A DNA stretch of 64,000 nucleotides from Candidatus Harrisonbacteria bacterium CG10_big_fil_rev_8_21_14_0_10_40_38 (GTDB taxonomy: Bacteria > Patescibacteriota > Minisyncoccia > UBA6257 > 1-14-0-10-40-38): assembly GCA_002773535.1 (NCBI GenBank), contig PFAZ01000009.1:34739-98738 (forward strand). Reading direction: 5' to 3'. Shown here in pieces: positions 3,355 to 47,231 of this stretch. A program made the position numbers and the translations under genes. The notes beneath the pieces are model-generated. The model had not been told where the DNA came from. It did not search any database and saw only the letters and a list, made by a program, of their open reading frames with translations. Each line of letters begins with the position of its first letter. Position 1 is the first letter of the stretch.

Positions 3355-5280
3355 ATGAAAACGAAATATTGGTTTTGGTTCTGGAAAACTTTTTTGGGAC
3401 CAAGCCGACTTCGAAAAAGGTTTGTCCAAACTTTTTTATTTGCTGGGCTTATACCGCTGGTTCTTATGGGAGCAGTCAGCTTTTATTTGGTGAGACTCAC
3501 TCACCAACAGGATGTTTCTGCGTTAGAGCAGAATATCTCAAACCAGGTTGCCACAGAAATAAAAAGGAATCTTGATGTGGCGGGGTCAATACTAGAACTA
3601 AGGGCAATATTTGATAACTTTGCACCTATTGCCTTTGATCAACAGTCATTAATTTTAGAAGATGTTTTCCGAGCTCTCCCACCGCTTGTTGAAGCTTCGT
3701 TTATATGCACAACGCCATTGCATTGCTCTGTCGGAGTTGAAACGAGTAGATGGGTAAGAAAAGGAAATGAAGCGCAACCGGAGCTAGAACTAAGAAACAG
3801 AATAAATGATCCTCAATTTGCAGCAGTGAGAGGAAGCGAGGGCAGATCGTTTGGCGAACCAATAAAAACCGCTGATGGAAAATTTGTGATTCCATTTGCT
3901 GCTCCTGTTTTTAATAAAAATAGTGAGGTTATAGCAATACTTGCGGCTTGGCTTGATTTATCAGGACTTGTGCAAGATATAGTTGCAAATGCAAATCTTG
4001 GACAGACAGGGTACGTTTATGCCGTAATGACTGACGGCACAATAGTGGCACATAGAGATCCGTCCCTTGTTGGGGAGACAATAAAAAACACCCCTATAAG
4101 ACAGGCTCTTGATTTAAACGACAACGCACCGGTAACACAAAACACGTATGAAAGCCTTACGGGTGTTTCTGTGAGTGGATCACTTAGCACGGTTCCTGAT
4201 ACAGCGCTTGCTGTTGTGGCAGAATGGCCAAAAACTGAAACTCAGGCCCTTATTGATACGATCATTTTACAAATTTTAACTTTTGCTTTTATAAGCTTTT
4301 TCCTTTTGGCTATTATTTCGAGCTGGATGGCTCTAAAACTCATAGAACCAATTGCGCAACTTAGAATAGGAACGAGTATTATCGGCGGAGGAAATTTCGA
4401 CTATCAGGTCCATATAAATACGGGTGATGAACTTGAAGATCTTGGTAAAAACCTTAACCGCATGGCTCAAAATCTAAAAGGATTGGAAGAGGTAAATAAA
4501 CTTCGCCTTAGGACAGAGTTGCTTTCTGAAAGCCTTAGAAAAGAAAGGGAGGTGTCAAAACTCAAGGATCAATTTATAACAACGGTATCGCATCAATTTA
4601 ATACACCACTTTCTGTAATTAACTGGTCTCTTGATACACTTCGTGATCCAAAATCAACACAAGAACAGATAAAAGAAACTACTGAAGTAATTTATAAGAG
4701 TCAGAGGGATATTGCTGCAATTGTTGCCGACCTACTTACGCTTTCTGAAATTGGTTTTAGATATCAAAAAGATAGAGTAAAACAAATAGACATTGCGGCG
4801 CTTGCGGATAAGGTTCTTGAAGAATTTCAAGATGCATTAAAAATCAAGAAAATAACCGCGCAGGTCACAAGATCGGGAGACACTATTGCGGAGGTAAATG
4901 AATTTACGATGCGAAAAGTAATTGAAAACTTGGTAGACAATGCTATCGCGTATTCAAATGAAGGAGGTGTTGTAACAATATCCATTGAAGGGGCTGGAAC
5001 AAACTTGAACCTAAACGTCTCTGATCATGGAATCGGAATACCAAAAGATGAACAACCTCTCATATTTCAACAGTTCTTTAGGGCAAAAAATGCCATAGCA
5101 AAGAAAAATGTTGGAACTGGTCTAGGGCTTTTTATAACAAAAAGTATAGTGGCGGGTCATGGGGGGAAAATATCTTTTACGTCTTCTGAAAATCAGGGAA
5201 CGATGTTTTTTGTGACTATTCCTAAAAAAGCCACTATAGAACAAACACCTCCGGTAAAACCTGAACTCAAAAAATCATAA
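3355..5280 (+). CDS. sensor histidine kinase (two TM segments, periplasmic sensor, HAMP, HisKA, HATPase_c)
   Basis: 641 aa. TM helices near aa 30-50 and about aa 300-320. HAMP-like segment HINTGDELEDLGKNLNRMAQNL. H-box VSHQFNTPLSV. G-boxes GTGLGLFITKSIVAGHGGKI. Confidence 0.8.
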   Translation: MKTKYWFWFWKTFLGPSRLRKRFVQTFLFAGLIPLVLMGAVSFYLVRLTHQQDVSALEQNISNQVATEIKRNLDVAGSILELRAIFDNFAPIAFDQQSLILEDVFRALPPLVEASFICTTPLHCSVGVETSRWVRKGNEAQPELELRNRINDPQFAAVRGSEGRSFGEPIKTADGKFVIPFAAPVFNKNSEVIAILAAWLDLSGLVQDIVANANLGQTGYVYAVMTDGTIVAHRDPSLVGETIKNTPIRQALDLNDNAPVTQNTYESLTGVSVSGSLSTVPDTALAVVAEWPKTETQALIDTIILQILTFAFISFFLLAIISSWMALKLIEPIAQLRIGTSIIGGGNFDYQVHINTGDELEDLGKNLNRMAQNLKGLEEVNKLRLRTELLSESLRKEREVSKLKDQFITTVSHQFNTPLSVINWSLDTLRDPKSTQEQIKETTEVIYKSQRDIAAIVADLLTLSEIGFRYQKDRVKQIDIAALADKVLEEFQDALKIKKITAQVTRSGDTIAEVNEFTMRKVIENLVDNAIAYSNEGGVVTISIEGAGTNLNLNVSDHGIGIPKDEQPLIFQQFFRAKNAIAKKNVGTGLGLFITKSIVAGHGGKISFTSSENQGTMFFVTIPKKATIEQTPPVKPELKKS

Positions 5281-5894: not shown

Positions 5895-6458
5895 ATGGAC
5901 AAATTAGTTATAGATATAGAAACATCAAATACGTTTGCAGATGTCGGAGGTCATAGAAATGTGGCTGATCTTTCTGTTTCCCTCGTGGGAATATATTCGT
6001 ATTCAAACGATAAATTTCATGCTTTTTATGAACACAATCTTGCTGATGCAGCTCCCCTTTTACAGTCTTGTGGTTTGCTAATTGGCTTTGCGATAAATAG
6101 GTTTGACGTGCCGGTTTTAAATAAACATTATCCGTTTAATCTTTTTTCGCTTCAGAGACTTGATTTACTTGATGAGATTGAGCTTTCGAGTGGAAGAAGA
6201 ATTAGTTTAAATATTTTGGCGAAGGCTAATTTAGGGGTTGAAAAAACTCACCATAGCCTTGAAGCAATTGATTTATACAGAGATGGAAAGTTTGACGAGT
6301 TAAGAGATTATTGTCTTACTGACGTGAAAATAACTAGGGATTTGTACGAACTCGCAAAAAAACAGGGATATTTAATCGTTCCTGATAAATTTTCAAACGA
6401 ACCACAAAAAATCGAACTCTCTTGGGAAGAACAAGCTTTCCCCGCAACTCTTTTTTAG
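5895..6458 (+). CDS. DEDDy-type 3'-5' exonuclease (RNase H-like superfamily, standalone DnaQ/PolB-exo-like domain)
   Basis: 187 aa. Exo I motif VIDIETSN, Exo II motif GFAINRFDVPVLNKHY, Exo III motif YCLTDVKITRDLYE. Confidence 0.6.
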   Translation: MDKLVIDIETSNTFADVGGHRNVADLSVSLVGIYSYSNDKFHAFYEHNLADAAPLLQSCGLLIGFAINRFDVPVLNKHYPFNLFSLQRLDLLDEIELSSGRRISLNILAKANLGVEKTHHSLEAIDLYRDGKFDELRDYCLTDVKITRDLYELAKKQGYLIVPDKFSNEPQKIELSWEEQAFPATLF

Positions 6459-7396
6459 TTTTTTATATAACCTTCCAATCTCTTAACTCCTTCTTTTAAC
6501 ACCTCTTCTTTTTTTGCTTCGACGTTTAGGCGAAGGAGGTTTTCTGTGTTTGATGGCCTTACACTAAACCACCACATATTTTCTCCTTCACCACATTCAA
6601 TACGAATGCCGTCCAAGTTGTTTGAATTTTTTATTTCGCTTATAAAAGCGTTTTGAATTTTTTCTATTATTATCTGCTTGTCGCTGACTTTGTAATTTGT
6701 TTCTGGGATTCTATAGGTTTTGAGGGATGATTTTTCCCACTCGCTTAGACTCGTGTTTTTTTCTTTTAATTTACTTAGAGCATTTAACATACTCATTGAA
6801 GCGCGCAGACCTGAATCGGCATATAAAAAATCTTTAAAATAATAATGACCGGAAACTTCAGCGCCAAAGGCAATATCTTTTTCTCTCATCATTTTTTTTA
6901 TGAAGTAGTGGCCTACGCGACAGTCTATAACAGATCTATTATTTTCTTTTAGCCATTCTCTAATTGGATAGCCGCTTCGAACATCTATGATTACCGGTCC
7001 ATTAAACTCTAATGCAATGAGTATGGCTGCTTTGTCGGGGTGAATTTCATCGCCTTTGTTATCTATAAAAAAAACCCTGTCCTCGTCAGCGTCTACAATG
7101 ATGCCTATGTCTGCATTTTGTTTTTTTACTTCTTGTTTTAAACCCTCCATCGCGCCTTCTTTTAGGGGGTTGGGGCCATGAGCGGAAAAATTAGGGTCGG
7201 GTGTTTCGTTTATTAAAATTATCTCTAAATTGTTTGGATTGAGGTTTTTTAGCTCTTCAAGAACGATGCCTGCTGTACCGTTTGATAAATCAAAAACCGC
7301 TTTTATCTTACTTGTCAGATTTAACCGACTTTGTAGAAATTTTGCATATTCTTTTGTGTAGTTTGTGTTGTTCATATCTTGAGTCAAGTATATCAA
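6455..7396 (-). CDS. phosphoglucomutase/phosphomannomutase, C-terminal fragment (alpha-D-phosphohexomutase domains II-IV). The gene is split from its N-terminal domain by a ~1.2 kb insertion.
   Basis: 313 aa. Segment YAKFLQSRLNLTSKIKAVFDLSNGTAGIVLEE matches the start of PGM/PMM domain II. Metal-binding loop IVDADEDRV. ORF-track start is TTG at 7394-7396; the first ATG is at 7373-7375. No obvious Shine-Dalgarno sequence. Confidence 0.7.
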   Translation of the reverse strand: MIYLTQDMNNTNYTKEYAKFLQSRLNLTSKIKAVFDLSNGTAGIVLEELKNLNPNNLEIILINETPDPNFSAHGPNPLKEGAMEGLKQEVKKQNADIGIIVDADEDRVFFIDNKGDEIHPDKAAILIALEFNGPVIIDVRSGYPIREWLKENNRSVIDCRVGHYFIKKMMREKDIAFGAEVSGHYYFKDFLYADSGLRASMSMLNALSKLKEKNTSLSEWEKSSLKTYRIPETNYKVSDKQIIIEKIQNAFISEIKNSNNLDGIRIECGEGENMWWFSVRPSNTENLLRLNVEAKKEEVLKEGVKRLEGYIKN

Positions 7397-7531
7397 TATT
7401 TGCCGTGGCTGTGCCTACCCCTTTACATATTTATTTATTTGGTGCTATGTTTTTTGTAGTTCTTGTTGGCTTCTTGGCTATACAAGTTTTCATGTTCATT
7501 GATAAAACCTAAGCCTCATGGAGGGCTTGTC

Positions 7532-8122
7532 GTGAGAATAACTCAAATATTGATTCTTGTTGTTTTTGTCGTTTGTGGTGTTTGTTTTTTTAACGGCCTT
7601 AAGACAAGGCGAATACCCGAAACAAAAAAGGAGGAATATCGCGAACTTCCTGTAACAGAGGTGGTGGGCGCGCCCACAAACGAGGAGGAGAGCAGGGTCG
7701 CCGTTCCTTTGGATGAGCCTGTGGTGGCAAAGAGTGAAGTGACTACCAATAATGAGGAGCAAAAAAAAGAAACCTTTCAAAATGATGAAATGGAAAGACG
7801 AGCTTATCTCATTGACGAGTGCAAAGCTGCTCTCAAATCTATCACGACTGAGAGCCTTGATGCATTCAATAATTCGGGTAGTGAAGAAGAATCGAAAGCG
7901 CAGCTGCGAAGATTTGATGATATGAAGAATGCGACATTGTGGGGATATTTCCCTTGGGCGCCGTCGATTGTGGAACAGAGAAGGTATGTTCTGTTAACTG
8001 GAAAGTACCCTCTTATTTCTAGTGAATTTAGGGAGTTGGAGAATAATTGCTTCAGTGATGCTGAGGCATGGGGAACTCTCAAACAGAAGATCGAAAACCT
8101 CAAACAGGAGAACAAAGAATGA
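7532..8122 (+). CDS. hypothetical membrane-anchored protein (insertion cassette gene 1)
   Basis: RBS GGAGGG (7520-7525), 6-nt spacer, then GTG at 7532. N-terminal TM ITQILILVVFVVCGVCFF, then an acidic/hydrophilic domain. Stop TGA at 8120-8122 overlaps the next start (ATGA). The ORF track extends further upstream to 7463. Confidence 0.5.
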   Translation: MRITQILILVVFVVCGVCFFNGLKTRRIPETKKEEYRELPVTEVVGAPTNEEESRVAVPLDEPVVAKSEVTTNNEEQKKETFQNDEMERRAYLIDECKAALKSITTESLDAFNNSGSEEESKAQLRRFDDMKNATLWGYFPWAPSIVEQRRYVLLTGKYPLISSEFRELENNCFSDAEAWGTLKQKIENLKQENKE

Positions 8123-8568
8123 AAATTGCTCACCGGTTCGCTTCCCTCTCCATCGTTCTTTCCATCTTCTTCGCCCTCACGCCCATTCTTCGGGCTGATG
8201 ACGGCCTCAAGGGAAAGAGTGTTTCCTACACCGGAAACGCAATTACCTTCACCGTGTCGTTCGGTCCGGAGGTCAACGGAACCTCGACTGCCCTCATCTC
8301 TGGAACGATTGATGGCAAAGACTTCGTTGCCGCTGCGTGGGTGCGTCAACTGGACGACGGCATGTTGGCGCTGTGTTCGGCGCCGGGGTCGGATGAACTG
8401 CCAGTGATCGAGGTAGGCGATCCTCCAAGGGTGAAGAAATACCGCTTTAACCCATGGATCGATCCGACTGAATTCGGTCAGGATGAGCCCTTTCCCGGCG
8501 GAGGTGTTCAAGACGTAGGAAATCGAGGTCCCGTGAGGTACCGACCTTTAAGAGGGAGGAGTACGTAG
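8119..8568 (+). CDS. hypothetical small secreted protein, GC-rich (insertion cassette gene 2)
   Basis: ATG at 8119 in an ATGA overlap with the upstream stop, which suggests translational coupling. Signal peptide MKIAHRFASLSIVLSIFFALTPILRA with a cleavage-like site before DDG. Codon usage is much more GC-rich than in the rest of the window. Confidence 0.55.
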   Translation: MKIAHRFASLSIVLSIFFALTPILRADDGLKGKSVSYTGNAITFTVSFGPEVNGTSTALISGTIDGKDFVAAAWVRQLDDGMLALCSAPGSDELPVIEVGDPPRVKKYRFNPWIDPTEFGQDEPFPGGGVQDVGNRGPVRYRPLRGRST

Positions 8569-8596
8569 AAAAAGCGTGTCGTGTACTGCGGTTTCT

Positions 8597-8640
8597 GCAG
8601 GCGAGTAATTGTATTTTTACTTTACTCGCCTGTTTTTTTT
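8597..8640 (+). terminator. rho-independent terminator of the inserted cassette
   Basis: Hairpin CAGGCGAGTAA ... TTACTCGCCTG followed by TTTTTTTT. The 3' arm of the hairpin overlaps the stop codon (8622-8624) of the truncated PGM N-fragment on the opposite strand. Confidence 0.7.
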
Positions 8641-9017
8641 ATAAGACTTAATATCTCCGTGCCGCTCACCGGTATGGCATTTTTTTCTACAACTTTACAA
8701 CCATTAAATTCAGGCGGGTTATGAGAAGCCGTTATCATAACACCACCTTCAGCATCCAGCTTGCCTACTAAAAAATAAAGCATGGGCGTTGTAGAGAGGC
8801 CTATTTCTATGACTTCTCTAACACCTACTTTTTTAAGGCCACTGACCATTGATTCTGATAGGCTTTTTGAACCGTTTCTTGCATCAAAACCGACAATGAT
8901 GCGGTTTTTTCCAATTCTTTCTGGGAGGGAGTTTCCGATTTTTTCCACAACTTCTTCATCTATTTCAGTTGGATAAATGCCTCTTATGTCGTAAGCTTTA
9001 AAAATATTTTCATTCAT
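8622..9017 (-). CDS. phosphoglucomutase/phosphomannomutase, N-terminal fragment (domain I with active-site serine loop)
   Basis: 131 aa. MNENIFKAYDIRGIYPTEID...GGVMITASHNPPEFNGCKVV contains the TASHNP phosphoserine loop. The last residues KKTGE and the stop are encoded by the T-run and hairpin of the inserted terminator. Confidence 0.75.
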   Translation of the reverse strand: MNENIFKAYDIRGIYPTEIDEEVVEKIGNSLPERIGKNRIIVGFDARNGSKSLSESMVSGLKKVGVREVIEIGLSTTPMLYFLVGKLDAEGGVMITASHNPPEFNGCKVVEKNAIPVSGTEILSLIKKTGE

Positions 9018-9075: not shown

Positions 9076-11217
9076 ATGGCGAAGAGAAATAAAAAAGAGG
9101 AAGAAGAGGAAGAGGGCGAAGGCTTTTTATCACAAATAAAAACGGAGACAAAAAAGAGTGTAAGCGCGGTACTGCTTATTGCTGTGTCTGCTCTGCTTGT
9201 TTTGGCGAGTATCGAAAAAGCGGGTCCTGTGGGTGATGCGATTTTTTCCGGTTTTTCAAAAGTTTTTGGAATTGGATACTACTTAATACCAATTGCATGT
9301 TTTGCAGTTGGTGTTTTGTTTTTATCTACTCTTGAGAAGAGGTTTTTTTCAGCTTCGTTTATTGGAGCGGGGTCATTTATTCTTTTAGTTTTGGGACTTA
9401 TTGATATATTTGCGCCGAGTAAGGGAGGTTGGCTTGGAAATGTAGTTGGTTCGCTTGAAACTCCTTTTGGGGTGATAGCGGCGACGATTATTATAATGGC
9501 GCTTGCCCTTGCAGCATTTCTTCTTACATTTAATGTTTCTGTTAAATTGCCAAAACTATCACTCGGGAGAGAGGACGTAGTAGAAGAGGAGGAGGAAAGC
9601 GAGGAAGAGGATAATGACGAAGAAGGAGATATTGAAGAGGAAGGGGAAGAGGAGGAGGAAAGCGAGGAAGAGGATAATGACGAAGAAGGAGAGTCAGCAC
9701 TGGGGTCAATTAAAAAATTTGTAAAAGGAATGGTCAGTGGTGAGCCAGCTGAAGCGGGTCCAATAAACACTAAGAGAAAGACCTCTATAATAACTTCTGA
9801 AAATTATGTACCGCCGCCTTTTTCTCTTTTAAAATCTACAATTGAAAAGCCTACATCGGGAGACTTGAGGGCAAATGCAAATATTATAAAACGCACATTG
9901 GATAGTTTTGGTATACCGGTTGAAATGGGAGAGATATCAATCGGACCAAAAGTTACGAGATACACCTTAAAGCCAGCCGAAGGAGTAAAGCTTTCGCGAA
10001 TAACTGCTCTTAGCCAAGATCTTGCCCTGGCTCTTGCGGCACATCCGATAAGATTTGAGGCACCGATACCTGGAAAATCATTAGTTGGTGTCGAGGTACC
10101 AAATAAAGCAGCGGCTATTGTAAGACTGGGGAGCCTTATGACATATTCTGATTTTACCGATTCAAGCTCCAAGCCTCTTATGCTTCCTCTGGGAAGAGAT
10201 GTGAGCGGCGAACCGATTTTTATAAACCTTGAGAAAATGCCCCACCTTCTTATAGCTGGATCAACTGGTTCTGGAAAAAGCATCTGCATACATTCGATAA
10301 TAATGTCGCTTTTATATAAAAATTCTCCTGAGCAGTTGCAGCTTATACTAATTGATCCAAAGCGCGTTGAACTTTCTGCTTATGACGGGATTCCTCACCT
10401 TGTCTCACCGGTAATAACAGATGTTAAAAAATCAGTTGGTGTTTTTAGGTGGACTATCTCTGAAATGGATAGAAGATATGACTTGCTTCTTAAAGCCGGC
10501 TCGAGAGATATACGCAGTTATAATGCAGCGCATAAAGACGAGCCCATCCCCTACCTTGTCATGGTGATTGATGAGCTCGCTGATTTGATGGCGAGATATG
10601 GCCGTGAAGTTGAGGGATCTATTGTGAGATTGGCGCAGATGGCAAGAGCGACGGGAATACATCTGATACTCTCAACACAAAGACCGTCGGTTGAGGTAAT
10701 CACCGGTCTTATAAAGGCGAACATAACTGCGAGAATTGCTCTTCAGGTTGCGAGTCAGATTGATTCGAGGACTATCCTTGATACTTCCGGGGCTGAGAAA
10801 CTTTTGGGCGGAGGCGACCTTCTTTTCATTTCGTCTGATTACAGCAAACCAAAGAGAGTTCAGGGCGCTTATATTTCAGAAGAAGAAATAAAATCCGTAA
10901 CTGATTTTATTGTCGAGAATAATCCGACACAAAGAGAGGAATCAATTGATGGAGAAATAGAGGAAGCAACAGAAGATTCTTCACCTGATATTTTTAGCGA
11001 CTTTGAGGACAGCGATGATGGTGATGAGCTTTACAATGAAGCTGTGTCTGTAGTGAGAGAAGCACAAAAGGCATCTGCATCTTTTCTACAACGAAGACTA
11101 AAGGTTGGATATGCAAGAGCTGCGCGACTTTTGGACTTAATGGAAGAGAAGGGCGTTATAGGCCCTGGCGAAGGAGCGAAGCCAAGAGAGGTATTTATTG
11201 ATCAGGAAGAACAATAG
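9076..11217 (+). CDS. ftsK: DNA translocase FtsK/SpoIIIE
   Basis: 713 aa. N-terminal TM helices, an acidic linker, Walker A LIAGSTGSGKS, and a gamma-domain winged helix (FLQRRLKVGYARAARLLDLMEEKGV) at the C-terminus. Confidence 0.9.
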   Translation: MAKRNKKEEEEEEGEGFLSQIKTETKKSVSAVLLIAVSALLVLASIEKAGPVGDAIFSGFSKVFGIGYYLIPIACFAVGVLFLSTLEKRFFSASFIGAGSFILLVLGLIDIFAPSKGGWLGNVVGSLETPFGVIAATIIIMALALAAFLLTFNVSVKLPKLSLGREDVVEEEEESEEEDNDEEGDIEEEGEEEEESEEEDNDEEGESALGSIKKFVKGMVSGEPAEAGPINTKRKTSIITSENYVPPPFSLLKSTIEKPTSGDLRANANIIKRTLDSFGIPVEMGEISIGPKVTRYTLKPAEGVKLSRITALSQDLALALAAHPIRFEAPIPGKSLVGVEVPNKAAAIVRLGSLMTYSDFTDSSSKPLMLPLGRDVSGEPIFINLEKMPHLLIAGSTGSGKSICIHSIIMSLLYKNSPEQLQLILIDPKRVELSAYDGIPHLVSPVITDVKKSVGVFRWTISEMDRRYDLLLKAGSRDIRSYNAAHKDEPIPYLVMVIDELADLMARYGREVEGSIVRLAQMARATGIHLILSTQRPSVEVITGLIKANITARIALQVASQIDSRTILDTSGAEKLLGGGDLLFISSDYSKPKRVQGAYISEEEIKSVTDFIVENNPTQREESIDGEIEEATEDSSPDIFSDFEDSDDGDELYNEAVSVVREAQKASASFLQRRLKVGYARAARLLDLMEEKGVIGPGEGAKPREVFIDQEEQ
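9586..9692 (+). repeat. near-perfect tandem duplication (about 45-60 nt unit) encoding an acidic EEEESEEEDNDEEGE linker inside ftsK
   Basis: The unit gaggaggaggaaagcgaggaagaggataatgacgaagaaggaga occurs twice, separated by a short spacer. Confidence 0.7.
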
Positions 11218-31014: not shown

Positions 31015-31076
31015 AAAAACCTCTGCTTAGCGCAGAGGTTTTTGTTTTTAAAAAACCCCGCTCAAAGAGCGGGGCC
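31015..31076. terminator. pair of hairpin terminators (convergent genes)
   Basis: AAAAACCTCTGCTTAGCGCAGAGGTTTTTGTTTTT (plus strand) and AAAAAACCCCGCTCAAAGAGCGGGGCC (serves the minus-strand gene). Confidence 0.7.
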
Positions 31077-31568
31077 TTGCACGGATTCAGTCATGGTAAT
31101 TTGCCCTTTACCATAACCATCCGTACAGATGAACCTAAACGTGTTTGACGGTAATTTGCCGTCGGGAAATGTTCTGAGTAGAGAATTGAATGAATTTGCG
31201 GCGTTCTCATGAAGAGTGCCGTCCATCCACCACAATTTGAAGTGGTCACTGGGCATTTTCACCATAGGCGTTGCGCCTCTTGGACCCGTGAACGCGACTG
31301 TCGGTTTGTTGAGCGTAGCATCAAATTCGACAGTTTCCCCGATTTTCACATATATGATTTTTGGGGAGTCAGTCCATGGGATTTTCTCTATCACAGGCTT
31401 TCCCTGCGATGGAGAATGAGTTGGAGAGGTTAAAGTTACCCGCGGAGCTACGTCAGTAGACTTGCTATACTTGGAGCCGACAAAAATGATTGCGCCTCCA
31501 AGTATAGCCATACCGATAGCGAATGAGGAGCCGAAGAATGACTTTTTTTCACCGGCGATGTGTGTCAT
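31062..31568 (-). CDS. hypothetical membrane-anchored protein
   Basis: 168 aa with an N-terminal TM helix (FAIGMAILGGAIIFVG). Confidence 0.4.
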   Translation of the reverse strand: MTHIAGEKKSFFGSSFAIGMAILGGAIIFVGSKYSKSTDVAPRVTLTSPTHSPSQGKPVIEKIPWTDSPKIIYVKIGETVEFDATLNKPTVAFTGPRGATPMVKMPSDHFKLWWMDGTLHENAANSFNSLLRTFPDGKLPSNTFRFICTDGYGKGQITMTESVQGPAL

Positions 31569-32622: not shown

Positions 32623-33741
32623 TCAGCTATTGATTCTATCCTTCACTTCACTCCAGTTTTTGATGATGATTCTTCCGCTTCCGCTTTCTTGTGAAGTTCT
32701 GAGACGAAAGCTGAGTGGCTCACCTATTGCCTTATATTCTTTTGACTCTGTTATCTCTCCAAGTAGATTCGGGACTATGTACCCACGAATTGAAGGATTA
32801 ATTGGAGCGAACCACCAATCGAAAAACCCTGAAATTCCCTCGATGCAAAGTTTTACGTTGCCGCATCCTTGAGGGATTGTGAAATAACGGTCTGTGAACT
32901 CGCTAGTCTCAAAGACAAAGGATGTGACTTCTTGTTTTAAGACACATTCTTCCGCGCCAGATTCCCATTCTTTGCTGTCTAGTCTTGAGAGAATTACTTC
33001 TCTTTCACTAGTGGGCATATCTGAACCGCTGCCGAAATCACTAGCCCCCGATGAACCGGTGGCTCCATCGGCAGATGGATTGGCTGACTCAGGAGGCGTG
33101 GTTGGCTCAGGCGCTTCTTTTTCTTTCGAGATAACGCCTTCTGCCTTTTCGATCAGGGGGTTGGCAATTTTGCTTAACTCGCCTAACGAACCGAAGTTCG
33201 CGATGGCGATGAGAATCACGATGAGAAGAAGTAATCCTGCGAACCACTTGAAGAGATTGAGGCTTCCTGATGATGAAGGCGATCTCTCTCTTGCCTCCAT
33301 GGCGCTTATGATATCGCTCGTCGTTGGAAGTTTGCCAACAAAATTTTTGGCAACTTCCTCGGACATCGCGAGACCCGCATTTGGAATGTGGACGCAGATG
33401 GGCGACGGAGTAATCACCGTCGGCGACTCTGTTACGGGCGGTGACTTTCTTTCATCATTCTTGGAATCTTCTGTATCTGCCATGGGTTGCCCCTCCTCTT
33501 TTTTTTCTTTCTTTTCTTCCGTTTCTTCCGAGCTTGTTGGTTTCGGTGACTCGTCGTTTGTATCTTCCGATATGAGCGGACGAAGTTCGTCGGCAATACC
33601 GGATGACTTGAGAAAGATTTTCGATCCTTCGTCACCAAGCGCTTCTCGGTGTTTTTTAAATCCCGCGAAAACAGCTTTCAGTGACTCATTTAGAGTATTC
33701 GGTCCTGTGGTGAGATCTGGCTTTTCGCCTTCGCTACTCAT
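32623..33741 (-). CDS. hypothetical membrane protein with a Ser/Glu/Lys-rich N-terminal region
   Basis: 372 aa. Low-complexity region KKEKKEEG, a central TM helix (FAGLLLLIVILIAIANFG), and a C-terminal domain. Appears co-oriented with the SPFH gene as an operon. Confidence 0.45.
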   Translation of the reverse strand: MSSEGEKPDLTTGPNTLNESLKAVFAGFKKHREALGDEGSKIFLKSSGIADELRPLISEDTNDESPKPTSSEETEEKKEKKEEGQPMADTEDSKNDERKSPPVTESPTVITPSPICVHIPNAGLAMSEEVAKNFVGKLPTTSDIISAMEARERSPSSSGSLNLFKWFAGLLLLIVILIAIANFGSLGELSKIANPLIEKAEGVISKEKEAPEPTTPPESANPSADGATGSSGASDFGSGSDMPTSEREVILSRLDSKEWESGAEECVLKQEVTSFVFETSEFTDRYFTIPQGCGNVKLCIEGISGFFDWWFAPINPSIRGYIVPNLLGEITESKEYKAIGEPLSFRLRTSQESGSGRIIIKNWSEVKDRINS

Positions 33742-46633: not shown

Positions 46634-46954
46634 ATGAGCTTTATTAATGTACACTATTACTATTTTTTTTTCAAAAAAAACGAGGCCTGCTTTGCGCAAG
46701 GCCCCTATGGAACAGGGCTTTCGGCCCTGGGGTGATATAGAGTTGGTTGTGAAGTAGCTGATCTAATGATAACGCATTTGAAGAGCCGTACAAGGACGGG
46801 GTGTGGATAAGTTTAGATGGTGATAGGAGTTGTATACCAAAGCAGTCTCATAATCCGTTTAAGAGCTTATTAAATAATATTGATTGAGGTTATGGTAATG
46901 ATTTTGGGTTTACCCTGAGTGAGCCTTGTTTATAAAACAAGGCGAATCAAAGGG

Positions 46955-47231
46955 TGCCTGGGCGGTGAATCGAACACCGGACGCCAGCCTCTTCCGAGAG
47001 TTGGACTATATCATCATCCCGTAATTACGGGAGCTGGGCGCTTGTGCGAGTTTATTGTTGGGACTCACCCGCTAGTCTCTACACCTTCCGGAAAACCTAT
47101 GCCCTTTCCGGCTTGGCTCGGGATTGTACTTTAAAAAGTCTTTCCCCGAATTCACCCAGTTTTTAATCATGTATTACTACAAGATGCCCCAAAGAGTTTA
47201 GGGCTGCGCTCTACCACTGAGCTACCCAGGC
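46955..47231 (-). tRNA. intron-containing tRNA: exons assemble into tRNA-Phe (GAA); a 205-nt group I intron is inserted between positions 33 and 34
   Basis: Exon 1 is 47200-47231: GCCTGGG TA GCTC AGTGGTA GAGC G CAGCC CT. Exon 2 is 46955-46994: GAAGA GGCTG GCGTC CGGTG TTCGATT CACCG CCCAGGC A. Standard numbering places the junction at U33|G34, giving the loop CUGAAGA. Confidence 0.7.
46995..47199 (-). ncRNA. group I self-splicing intron (small, about 205 nt) within the tRNA anticodon loop
   Basis: In tRNA orientation: P1 is exon GCCCU paired with IGS GGGGC, with a U.G pair at the splice site. P10 is exon-2 GAAGAG paired with CTCTT. P7 strands are ...GGTGTAGAGACTAGCGGG... and ...GATATAGTCC.... 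P8 hairpin CTCCCGTAATTACGGGA. The intron ends ...CTCG with omega-G. Segments AATTCGGGGAAAG and CCCGAGCCAAGC resemble small bacterial tRNA introns; this is from memory. Confidence 0.7.

Follow-up and report, generated by a model that had tools for sequence, protein, structure and literature searches.

How did a gene for a phosphoglucomutase/phosphomannomutase (PGM/PMM) come to be encoded in two pieces, with two genes of foreign appearance lodged between them? The question is raised by a locus of Candidatus Harrisonbacteria bacterium CG10_big_fil_rev_8_21_14_0_10_40_38, a groundwater bacterium belonging to the candidate phyla radiation (CPR). The locus lies in a stretch of 64,000 nucleotides of contig PFAZ01000009.1 (assembly GCA_002773535.1, positions 34,739 to 98,738), which we call the window and in whose coordinates all positions are given. 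PGM/PMM enzymes link glycolysis to cell-envelope and storage sugars, and catalysis by phosphohexomutases depends on inter-domain motion. A preliminary description of the sequence proposed that a GC-rich cassette had recently been inserted into the gene and had thereby truncated it. We argue that the cassette did not cause the split, because related lineages share the split, mostly without any insert. In our judgment it is probable that an old and functional two-cistron phosphohexomutase was already in place when a foreign, lineage-specific unit of orphan genes was inserted between its cistrons.

The two halves and their junctions

Both halves of the PGM/PMM gene lie on the minus strand, with about 1.24 kb between them that carries two genes on the plus strand. 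This layout, already recognized in the preliminary description, is borne out by the map of open reading frames (ORFs), the raw sequence, and Pfam. The N-half (8622..9017; 131 aa; stop codon TAA at 8622-8624) is a PGM_PMM_I domain (PF02878, E 5.7e-33). The ORF of the C-half (6455-7396) codes for PGM_PMM_II, III, and IV (PF02879, PF02880, and PF00408, with E 2e-18, 6e-17, and 5.5e-10, respectively), and all four domain matches exceed the curated cut-offs. Homology of the C-half starts at the ATG at 7375-7373, from which pipelines call a protein of 306 aa (6455..7375); the in-frame residues upstream contribute none. The N-terminus of this protein, M-N-N-T-N-Y-T-K-E-Y, differs in position by 0-5 residues from the C-half starts of all other split lineages. 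The two ORFs are full length, free of frameshifts and internal stops.

On the NCBIfam profile PRK09542 (456 positions), the N-half covers positions 9-135 and the C-half 154-453. The 13 in-frame residues before the ATG at 7375 lengthen the second alignment by two positions only (152 instead of 154). The earlier statement that the halves are nearly contiguous at the protein level must therefore be qualified, as ~16-18 profile positions are missing between them. By comparison with solved PMM/PGM structures, we take these positions to be the last strand and the linker of domain I.

The active-site motifs are divided between the two polypeptides. The phosphoserine loop TASHNP (MITASHNPPEFNG) is in the N-half and is kept in all split relatives. 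The C-half contains the metal loop in domain II, which reads VDADEDR in the window versus FD(A/G)DGDR in relatives with the three Asp and the Arg present, the sugar loop in domain III (GAEVSGHYYF), and the phosphate loop in domain IV (VRPSNTEN). As judged from domains and motifs, the two halves together would constitute a PMM/PGM-type alpha-D-phosphohexomutase. Instead of the single chain that characterizes such enzymes, two ORFs are found here and likewise in 9 further lineages. Each half scores under the NCBIfam equivalog cut-offs, as does an artificial fusion of the two (310 bits versus a cut-off of 618), and the source record labels the C-half, together with the second cassette gene, as "hypothetical protein".

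An exact-protein look-up retrieved the identical arrangement from at least 7 independently assembled contigs, which represent 7 samples and assemblies from several sources (JGI 3300004210, 3300004209, and 3300025850; ENA ERZ27293400, ERZ27293414, and ERZ27293412; Logan SRR6240789). Across both junctions, their sequences and that of the window show 100% identity. Since at least seven independent assemblies agree, we can exclude the mis-join that the preliminary description had considered: the junctions are real. We found no empty-site or variant allele of the cassette locus in the same population. The neighbors of the locus are FtsK, RecA, NusA, and RNase H-like genes, which place it on a bacterial chromosome and not in a prophage.

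Split forms in related lineages

Relatives of the split gene were collected by a metagenome scan seeded with two C-halves, that of the window and that of the locus L014. The scan returned 80 loci, in each of which the N and C parts were located. A contig scan with the fused PGM yielded no more than two PGMs, both distant and intact. Apart from the window's own proteins, the best PGM matches share 45% identity. One of these (P0020) is a protein of 330 aa with domains II-IV only, encoded on L014 (GCA_964365655.1). This locus is syntenic with the window (H+-PPase, NusA, RecA, HTH_25, FtsK, then PGM), and its gene is split at the same point.

In total, nine other lineages of the same PGM clade are split within a few residues of the split position in the window. 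Six of these (L017, L018, L019, L021, L023, and L027) have no insert, and their cistrons overlap, abut, or are spaced by 1-3 nt. The N-half stop and C-half start overlap as ATGA in L017 and L018, and by 8 nt in L027; they are arranged as TGA-t-ATG in L021 and L023 and as TAA TAA ATG in L019. The halves are separated by a 131-nt spacer in L026, by a 272-nt spacer in L014/L015, and by a 1869-nt insert in L024. Stand-alone C-halves occur on two Hainich groundwater contigs (L035, 4662-5627; L039, 5001-5966), where the C-half adjoins a divergent gene that we read as TatD-like. No N-half is present within the 10-kb locus of either contig, so the halves are unlinked or the N-half has been lost. All more distant PGMs among the scanned loci are single ORFs.

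The gene order FtsK <- / -> PGM-N PGM-C / <- RNaseH2-like <- RNaseH-like is conserved. Because the FtsK and RNase H-like neighbors are shared, the split PGM loci can be regarded as orthologous. Orthologous N-halves of 130-145 aa are present in 7 other lineages, and in the alignment the C-half of the window and 8 other stand-alone C-halves start at the same position. The motifs TASH(N/S/L)P, D-x-D-x-DR, E-x-SGHYYFKDF, and R-x-SNTE are found in every split lineage at 40-55% overall identity, a pattern that argues for purifying selection on both halves.

These observations bear directly on the claim that the insertion created the truncation, and they speak against it: nine lineages are split at the same place and lack the same part of the linker (see below), and six of them have no insert. 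The preliminary description had also anticipated that a split shared by close relatives, with an insert of native composition, would indicate an old two-subunit enzyme rather than a recent insertion. The split is indeed common among relatives, but most of them have no insert, and the insert of the window still looks foreign. Intact PGM genes also occur in the clade (L016, L020, and L025).

Neighbor-joining trees were computed for the C-half and for the concatenated N- and C-parts. In the C-half tree, all split forms and three intact forms (L016, L020, and L025) fall into one clade with bootstrap 99. In the concatenated tree, the corresponding clade (bootstrap 100) comprises the seven split forms that have both halves and the intact forms L016, L020, L025, P0005, P0006, P0008, P0009, and P0013. 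The outgroups in the trees are all intact. The branch of the window has a length of 0.38-0.41, compared with 0.15-0.54 for its relatives.

A second shared character is the length of the connection between domains I and II. Between the NGxK and FDxSxG motifs, split forms have 43-50 residues (50 in the window, counted by hand), versus 58-66 in canonical intact forms and 69-88 in a subgroup with long linkers. All split forms, the window included, lack the same 11-18 linker residues while every catalytic motif is retained. The absent segment corresponds to the "(K/R)G-x-I-x-x-x" that ends domain I. A search of both flanks of the window insert for a remnant of the missing linker codons found none. 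The loss of this segment is a derived feature that the split forms share.

The intact forms with long linkers deserve a separate remark. In L020 (4825-4960), P0008, P0006, P0005, and L016, the linker at the split point is of low complexity, poorly conserved, and 20-25 residues longer than the canonical one. Perfect hairpins lie nested in the linker DNA of L020 (z -3.3), and that of L016 (z -0.14) and L025 (z -1.37) is without excess structure. The L020 hairpins hint at in-frame palindromic inserts or at re-fusion through an insert.

The DNA that separates the halves in split relatives is diverse. An all-against-all comparison of the four junction inserts (window, L014, L024, and L026) revealed no homology. 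The L014 spacer (7729-8000), in which a pipeline calls an 86-aa ORF, folds into a stem of ~25 bp (-123 kcal/mol, z -8.6) and is similar to its own reverse complement. Neither Rfam nor Pfam provides a match, and the spacer looks like a palindromic element, or one resembling a miniature inverted-repeat transposable element (MITE), rather than a gene. The L026 spacer (768-886) is strongly structured (-41.5 kcal/mol, z -4.6), and a 35-nt piece of it recurs in L035/L039. The L024 insert (166-2034) contains a GC-rich block (50-56%, compared with ~40% elsewhere in the contig), where ORFs lie at 430-951 and 964-1146; it also has an ORF for a TrpR-like helix-turn-helix protein at 1382-1861 (PF01371, E 2e-10) and perfect inverted repeats of 24 and 28 nt.

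The inserted cassette

The cassette in the window consists of two genes on the plus strand. Gene 1 (7532..8122; 196 aa; GTG start; supported by ORF and gene call) is preceded by the Shine-Dalgarno (SD) sequence GGAGGG (7520..7525), 6 nt before the start. Gene 2 (8119..8568; 149 aa; ATG start; an ORF) is preceded by AGGAG and overlaps gene 1 by ATGA at 8119-8122. The protein encoded by gene 1 has an N-terminal transmembrane helix, an acidic, low-complexity, disordered linker, and an all-helical C-terminal domain. Its AlphaFold2 model (pLDDT 71.7) contains helices at 3-24 and 72-195 and has no match below E 0.03 in the PDB or BFVD by Foldseek. The gene 2 protein has a beta-rich core and a tail rich in G, P, and R; its model shows an N-terminal helix (4-24) followed by beta strands and, with a pLDDT of 47.5, is too poor for a fold search. 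Read by eye, the N-terminus MKIAHR-FASLSIVLSIFFALTPILRA|DD resembles a Sec signal peptide that is likely cut after LRA. The preliminary description had pointed out the membrane anchor, the signal peptide, the ATGA overlap, and the GGAGGG site, and we see the same features in the sequence and in the model helices. In two of the samples (JGI 3300004209 and 3300025850) the locus is distributed over two contigs, which stop at 7824/7828 and resume at 7834/7836. This recurrent break lies inside gene 1, away from the cassette borders and at the same place in both samples; it could reflect a drop in coverage or a micro-variant.

We compared both proteins with a broad range of databases. A word-indexed search of 5.8e9 protein clusters returned each protein only as a match to itself, and Pfam, PHROGs, NCBIfam, and PADLOC contain no family for either. 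An exhaustive HMMER search of gene 2 against 1.84e9 representatives found the protein itself and one 1247-aa repeat protein (E 1.8e-5). We do not accept the latter as a homologue: the match is weak, and its repeats, of HYR/Ig type by eye, give at most a hint of a beta-sandwich. The cassette DNA has no match in phage genomes (blastn), gene 2 gives one meaningless match to plasmids (tblastn, E 0.08), and neither protein matches anything in IMG/VR. The homology searches that the preliminary description had called for thus leave the cassette proteins as orphans, without a credible homologue among the billions of proteins searched. By prediction, these proteins would be located in the membrane and outside the cell, which would fit a role in the cell envelope. 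Our best guess, and a tentative one, is that they form an envelope or secreted pair that is specific to this lineage and was acquired through illegitimate recombination of foreign DNA.

The base composition of the cassette is unusual. The GC content of the window is 0.399 (39.9%), and its richest 300-nt stretch is 8246-8545, at 0.583, with the runner-up anywhere at 0.527. Gene 2 ranks first at scales of 200, 300, and 450 nt, exactly as the preliminary description had stated. GC content at third codon positions (GC3) is 0.607 in gene 2 and 0.426 in gene 1; 48 long ORFs of the window average 0.329±0.061, which puts gene 2 at a z of about 4.5. Translation signals deviate as well: an SD 4-mer precedes only 3 of 38 native genes versus both cassette genes (hypergeometric p about 0.013). 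Because GC and GC3 are deviant and both genes have SD sites, the cassette is atypical for this genome in two independent respects, composition and SD use. The 38 gene starts suggest that leaderless mRNAs, or mRNAs with very short leaders, are the norm in this Harrisonbacteria genome; in many native genes a TATAAT-like box precedes the ATG by 7-12 nt, for example in those at 3355, 9017 (minus strand), 9076, and 28435. Nothing homologous to the cassette is present in any of the orthologous loci that were fetched. We infer that the cassette arrived by horizontal transfer. Raised GC3 is also seen in two ORFs on the minus strand, 31062-31568 (0.49) and 32623-33741 (0.45), against a mean of 0.33. 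These ORFs have upstream motifs of the GGAG/GGGGG type and may be other acquired genes.

There is no sign of a mobility function. The cassette comprises two ORFs only, without a family match, and contains no transposase or integrase. Repeats at its borders are no better than expected by chance, either as target-site duplications or as terminal inverted repeats; the best examples are a 10-nt direct repeat with 9/10 identity at 7525/8574 and an 11-nt inverted repeat at 7392/7544. The absence of a transposase, an integrase, and an obvious target-site duplication, noted from the beginning, therefore stands, and we reject the idea that the cassette is a transposable element, insertion sequence, or MITE. 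No integrase was seen by Pfam on the cassette ORFs and three neighbors or among precomputed Pfam matches within 10 kb, although no dedicated search for attC sites was made. When weighed against an integron attC site, the 3' hairpin of the cassette, a perfect 11-bp stem followed by T8, looks like a terminator.

This intrinsic terminator (8598..8640, plus strand; stem 8598-8608/8622-8632, T8 at 8633-8640; -22 kcal/mol, z = -5.35) overlaps the end of the PGM/PMM N-half. The stop codon TAA of the N-half sits in the 3' arm of the hairpin, and read on the minus strand the bases of the terminator encode K K T G E and the stop. This much of the earlier reading, that the terminator encodes the last five codons and the stop of the N-half, is accurate. 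As proof that the insertion made the truncation, it fails. The N-half of the window ends in AGT CTT ATA AAA AAA ACA GGC GAG TAA (SLIKKTGE*), and that of the insert-free L018 ends in AGT TTA GTA AAA AAA ACA CTA TGA (SLVKKTL*). The run AAAAAAAACA, which contains the KKT codons, is common to the terminator of the window and to L018. Since AAA AAA ACA is also the native C-terminal sequence of an insert-free gene, the T-run of the terminator, an A-run on the other strand, is ancestral coding sequence and not imported DNA. The inserted DNA could have contributed no more than the final two codons and the stop of the N-half.

At the other border, an AT-rich spacer (7376..7531, read from the sequence) separates the divergent C-half and gene 1. 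A candidate extended -10 element for the C-half, TGaTATACT (7395->7387, minus strand), is located 11 nt before the ATG, an arrangement like that upstream of the native genes at 3355 and 9076, among others. For the cassette, a candidate promoter at 7422-7451 (plus strand) matches the consensus, with TTTACA-18-TATGTT and an upstream TG. Both elements were recognized from sequence, and we consider them putative promoters.

Two further observations concern other parts of the window. FtsK (9076-11217) contains, in its linker region (9540-9720), a duplicated and highly acidic insert in which EEEEESEEEDNDEEG occurs twice. One SNP among the contigs, G/T at 9672, falls in this region. A group I intron at 46985-47209 (within 46953-47231, minus strand) was identified by Rfam with 62.6 bits against a gathering cut-off of 50 (E 1.7e-13). 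By hand reading, it interrupts a tRNA gene that ARAGORN missed. The 5' exon runs 47231->47200 and ends with U33, and P1 pairs exon GCCCU with the internal guide sequence GGGGC. The intron extends ~47199->46995 with G as its last base, and the 3' exon begins GAAGA-GGCTG. The spliced anticodon loop would be CU-GAA-GA, identifying a tRNA-Phe(GAA) whose nucleotides 33 and 34 are separated by the intron.

Order of events and known systems

The following scenario accounts for this locus. The ancestral state would have been a single operon in which the two cistrons overlapped or abutted (ATGA, TGAnATG) and were presumably co-transcribed and translationally coupled. The two polypeptides would assemble non-covalently into one active site, with the N-half contributing the phosphoserine loop and the C-half the metal-, sugar-, and phosphate-binding loops. 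We presume that such a two-piece enzyme is active. About 1.24 kb of DNA would then have entered exactly at the inter-cistronic junction, between stop and start, in antisense orientation. The insert would be a self-contained unit: its two coupled ORFs come with SD sites, and a candidate promoter and an intrinsic terminator flank them. Its transcription would proceed through the two ORFs to the hairpin and T8, with the native A-run from the 3' end of the N-half incorporated into the terminator. The insertion would have uncoupled the halves, and for its expression the C-half may now depend on a near-leaderless promoter of its own within the AT-rich spacer.

Several points weigh against this reconstruction. 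Bootstrap values inside the clade are only 4-63, and the window branches first. From such trees, one ancient fission followed by re-fusions is indistinguishable from several independent fissions, that of the window included. No relative above ~45% PGM identity exists in the databases searched, and there is no near-relative empty site by which the insertion could be dated. Composition and SD usage make up the whole case for a foreign origin of the cassette, and no donor or homologue of it was found, which is odd for a recent transfer. Finally, the metal loop of the window is atypical in having Glu for Gly at its variable fourth position (DADEDR versus D(A/G)DGDR).

The first of these points lends support to the idea that the gene was intact in the immediate ancestor and that the cassette itself cut it, in an independent and recent fission. 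The cassette is located exactly between the halves, the N-half stop lies in its terminator hairpin, and the tree, with the window as the earliest branch of a clade that has some intact members, is compatible with a separate event. Yet this event would have had to reproduce what is already found at the same place in nine other lineages, six of them without an insert. It would require a matching deletion of 11-18 residues, of which the flanks bear no trace, and a new ATG where the relatives have theirs. The KKT codons in the terminator are native. We consider this course of events unlikely.

Alternatively, the halves could be a decaying pseudogene, the enzyme having been lost or replaced by a paralogue, and the insert could be DNA without effect in a locus that is dead. 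Loss of metabolic genes is common in CPR genomes, the insertion disrupts a translational coupling that relatives display, the C-half lacks an SD site and has no more than a putative promoter, and the Gly to Glu exchange in its metal loop is unusual. However, the ORFs are full length, without frameshifts or internal stops, and their catalytic motifs are intact. The branch length of the window is not elevated (0.38-0.41 versus 0.15-0.54), the absence of an SD site is usual in this genome, and the sequence is identical in all samples. We judge decay to be quite unlikely.

That the insert is a self-splicing intron or other element restoring a continuous PGM, or a chimeric assembly, is highly implausible even though the window holds a group I intron elsewhere and GC-rich islands in AT-rich genomes are often structured RNAs: neither strand of the insert has an Rfam match at E <= 10 beyond noise (the same is true of the L014 insert), the insert-free relatives have their halves in different frames with an ATG for each C-half, so that splicing is neither needed nor possible, and at least 7 independently assembled contigs agree. 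An intron or intein in the window insert is also rejected on the grounds that the sense-strand frames are closed by stops, the ORFs are antisense, and an Rfam core is missing.

Returning to an old two-cistron enzyme that received its insert later, we can ask whether the junction itself attracts such events. The boundary between domain I and domains II-IV may be an "open" joint, changing back and forth between fusion and fission and taking up foreign or palindromic DNA time and again. This idea is suggested by the finding that four split lineages have unrelated inserts at this junction (131 nt, 272 nt, 1.87 kb, and 1.24 kb), by the unlinked halves in one lineage, and by the non-canonical long linkers of intact relatives, hairpin-rich in L020. 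We regard it as possible but rather doubtful. If it were true, the long linkers would be exapted inserts or re-fusions through inserts, and the two-piece enzyme would be a functional heterodimer and a natural split-enzyme system.

The two-cistron arrangement has practical consequences. A metabolic reconstruction based on full-length PGM/PMM alone would miss the enzyme in this organism and in about ten related CPR lineages. If the pieces assemble, they would represent a natural two-chain phosphohexomutase in which the docking of domain I onto domains II-IV could readily be studied. The locus would also show a streamlined CPR genome with tiny intergenic spacers gaining genes at the only "soft" spot of an operon, a junction that has been struck independently in other lineages.

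We found no report of a split phosphohexomutase (PGM/PMM) in the full-text searchable literature, and every solved relative matched by the halves is a single chain of 455-485 residues. Single-chain PMM/PGM enzymes such as the PGM from Xanthomonas citri (5BMN/6NN2) and AlgC from Pseudomonas aeruginosa (1K35) have the same four domains and four active-site loops. On the Xanthomonas PGM, the N-half aligns to residues 24-144 (best 5kl0/6nn2) and the C-half to 184-455. The enzyme of the window differs in that its two polypeptides are cut between domains I and II and lack the last strand and linker of domain I. Nanoarchaeum equitans carries split genes, and the class II ribonucleotide reductase of P. 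aeruginosa is reportedly split; in these cases, too, an enzyme that is usually one chain is encoded by two ORFs. The PGM is likewise split at a domain boundary, its pieces are conserved across a clade, and in L035/L039 they are unlinked. In contrast to the split genes of the Nanoarchaeum type, the pieces are mostly adjacent and apparently translationally coupled, and fission and fusion are interleaved in one clade.

In architecture, but not in context, the cassette resembles phage morons, units with a transcription of their own that sit between two genes of a conserved operon. It differs from them by its location on a bacterial chromosome, by having no phage homology, and by its antisense orientation relative to the host operon. 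What it shares with morons is a candidate promoter, SD sites, a strong terminator, a deviant composition, the lack of a mobility gene, and a position between two genes that are adjacent in relatives, namely in the insert-free split forms.

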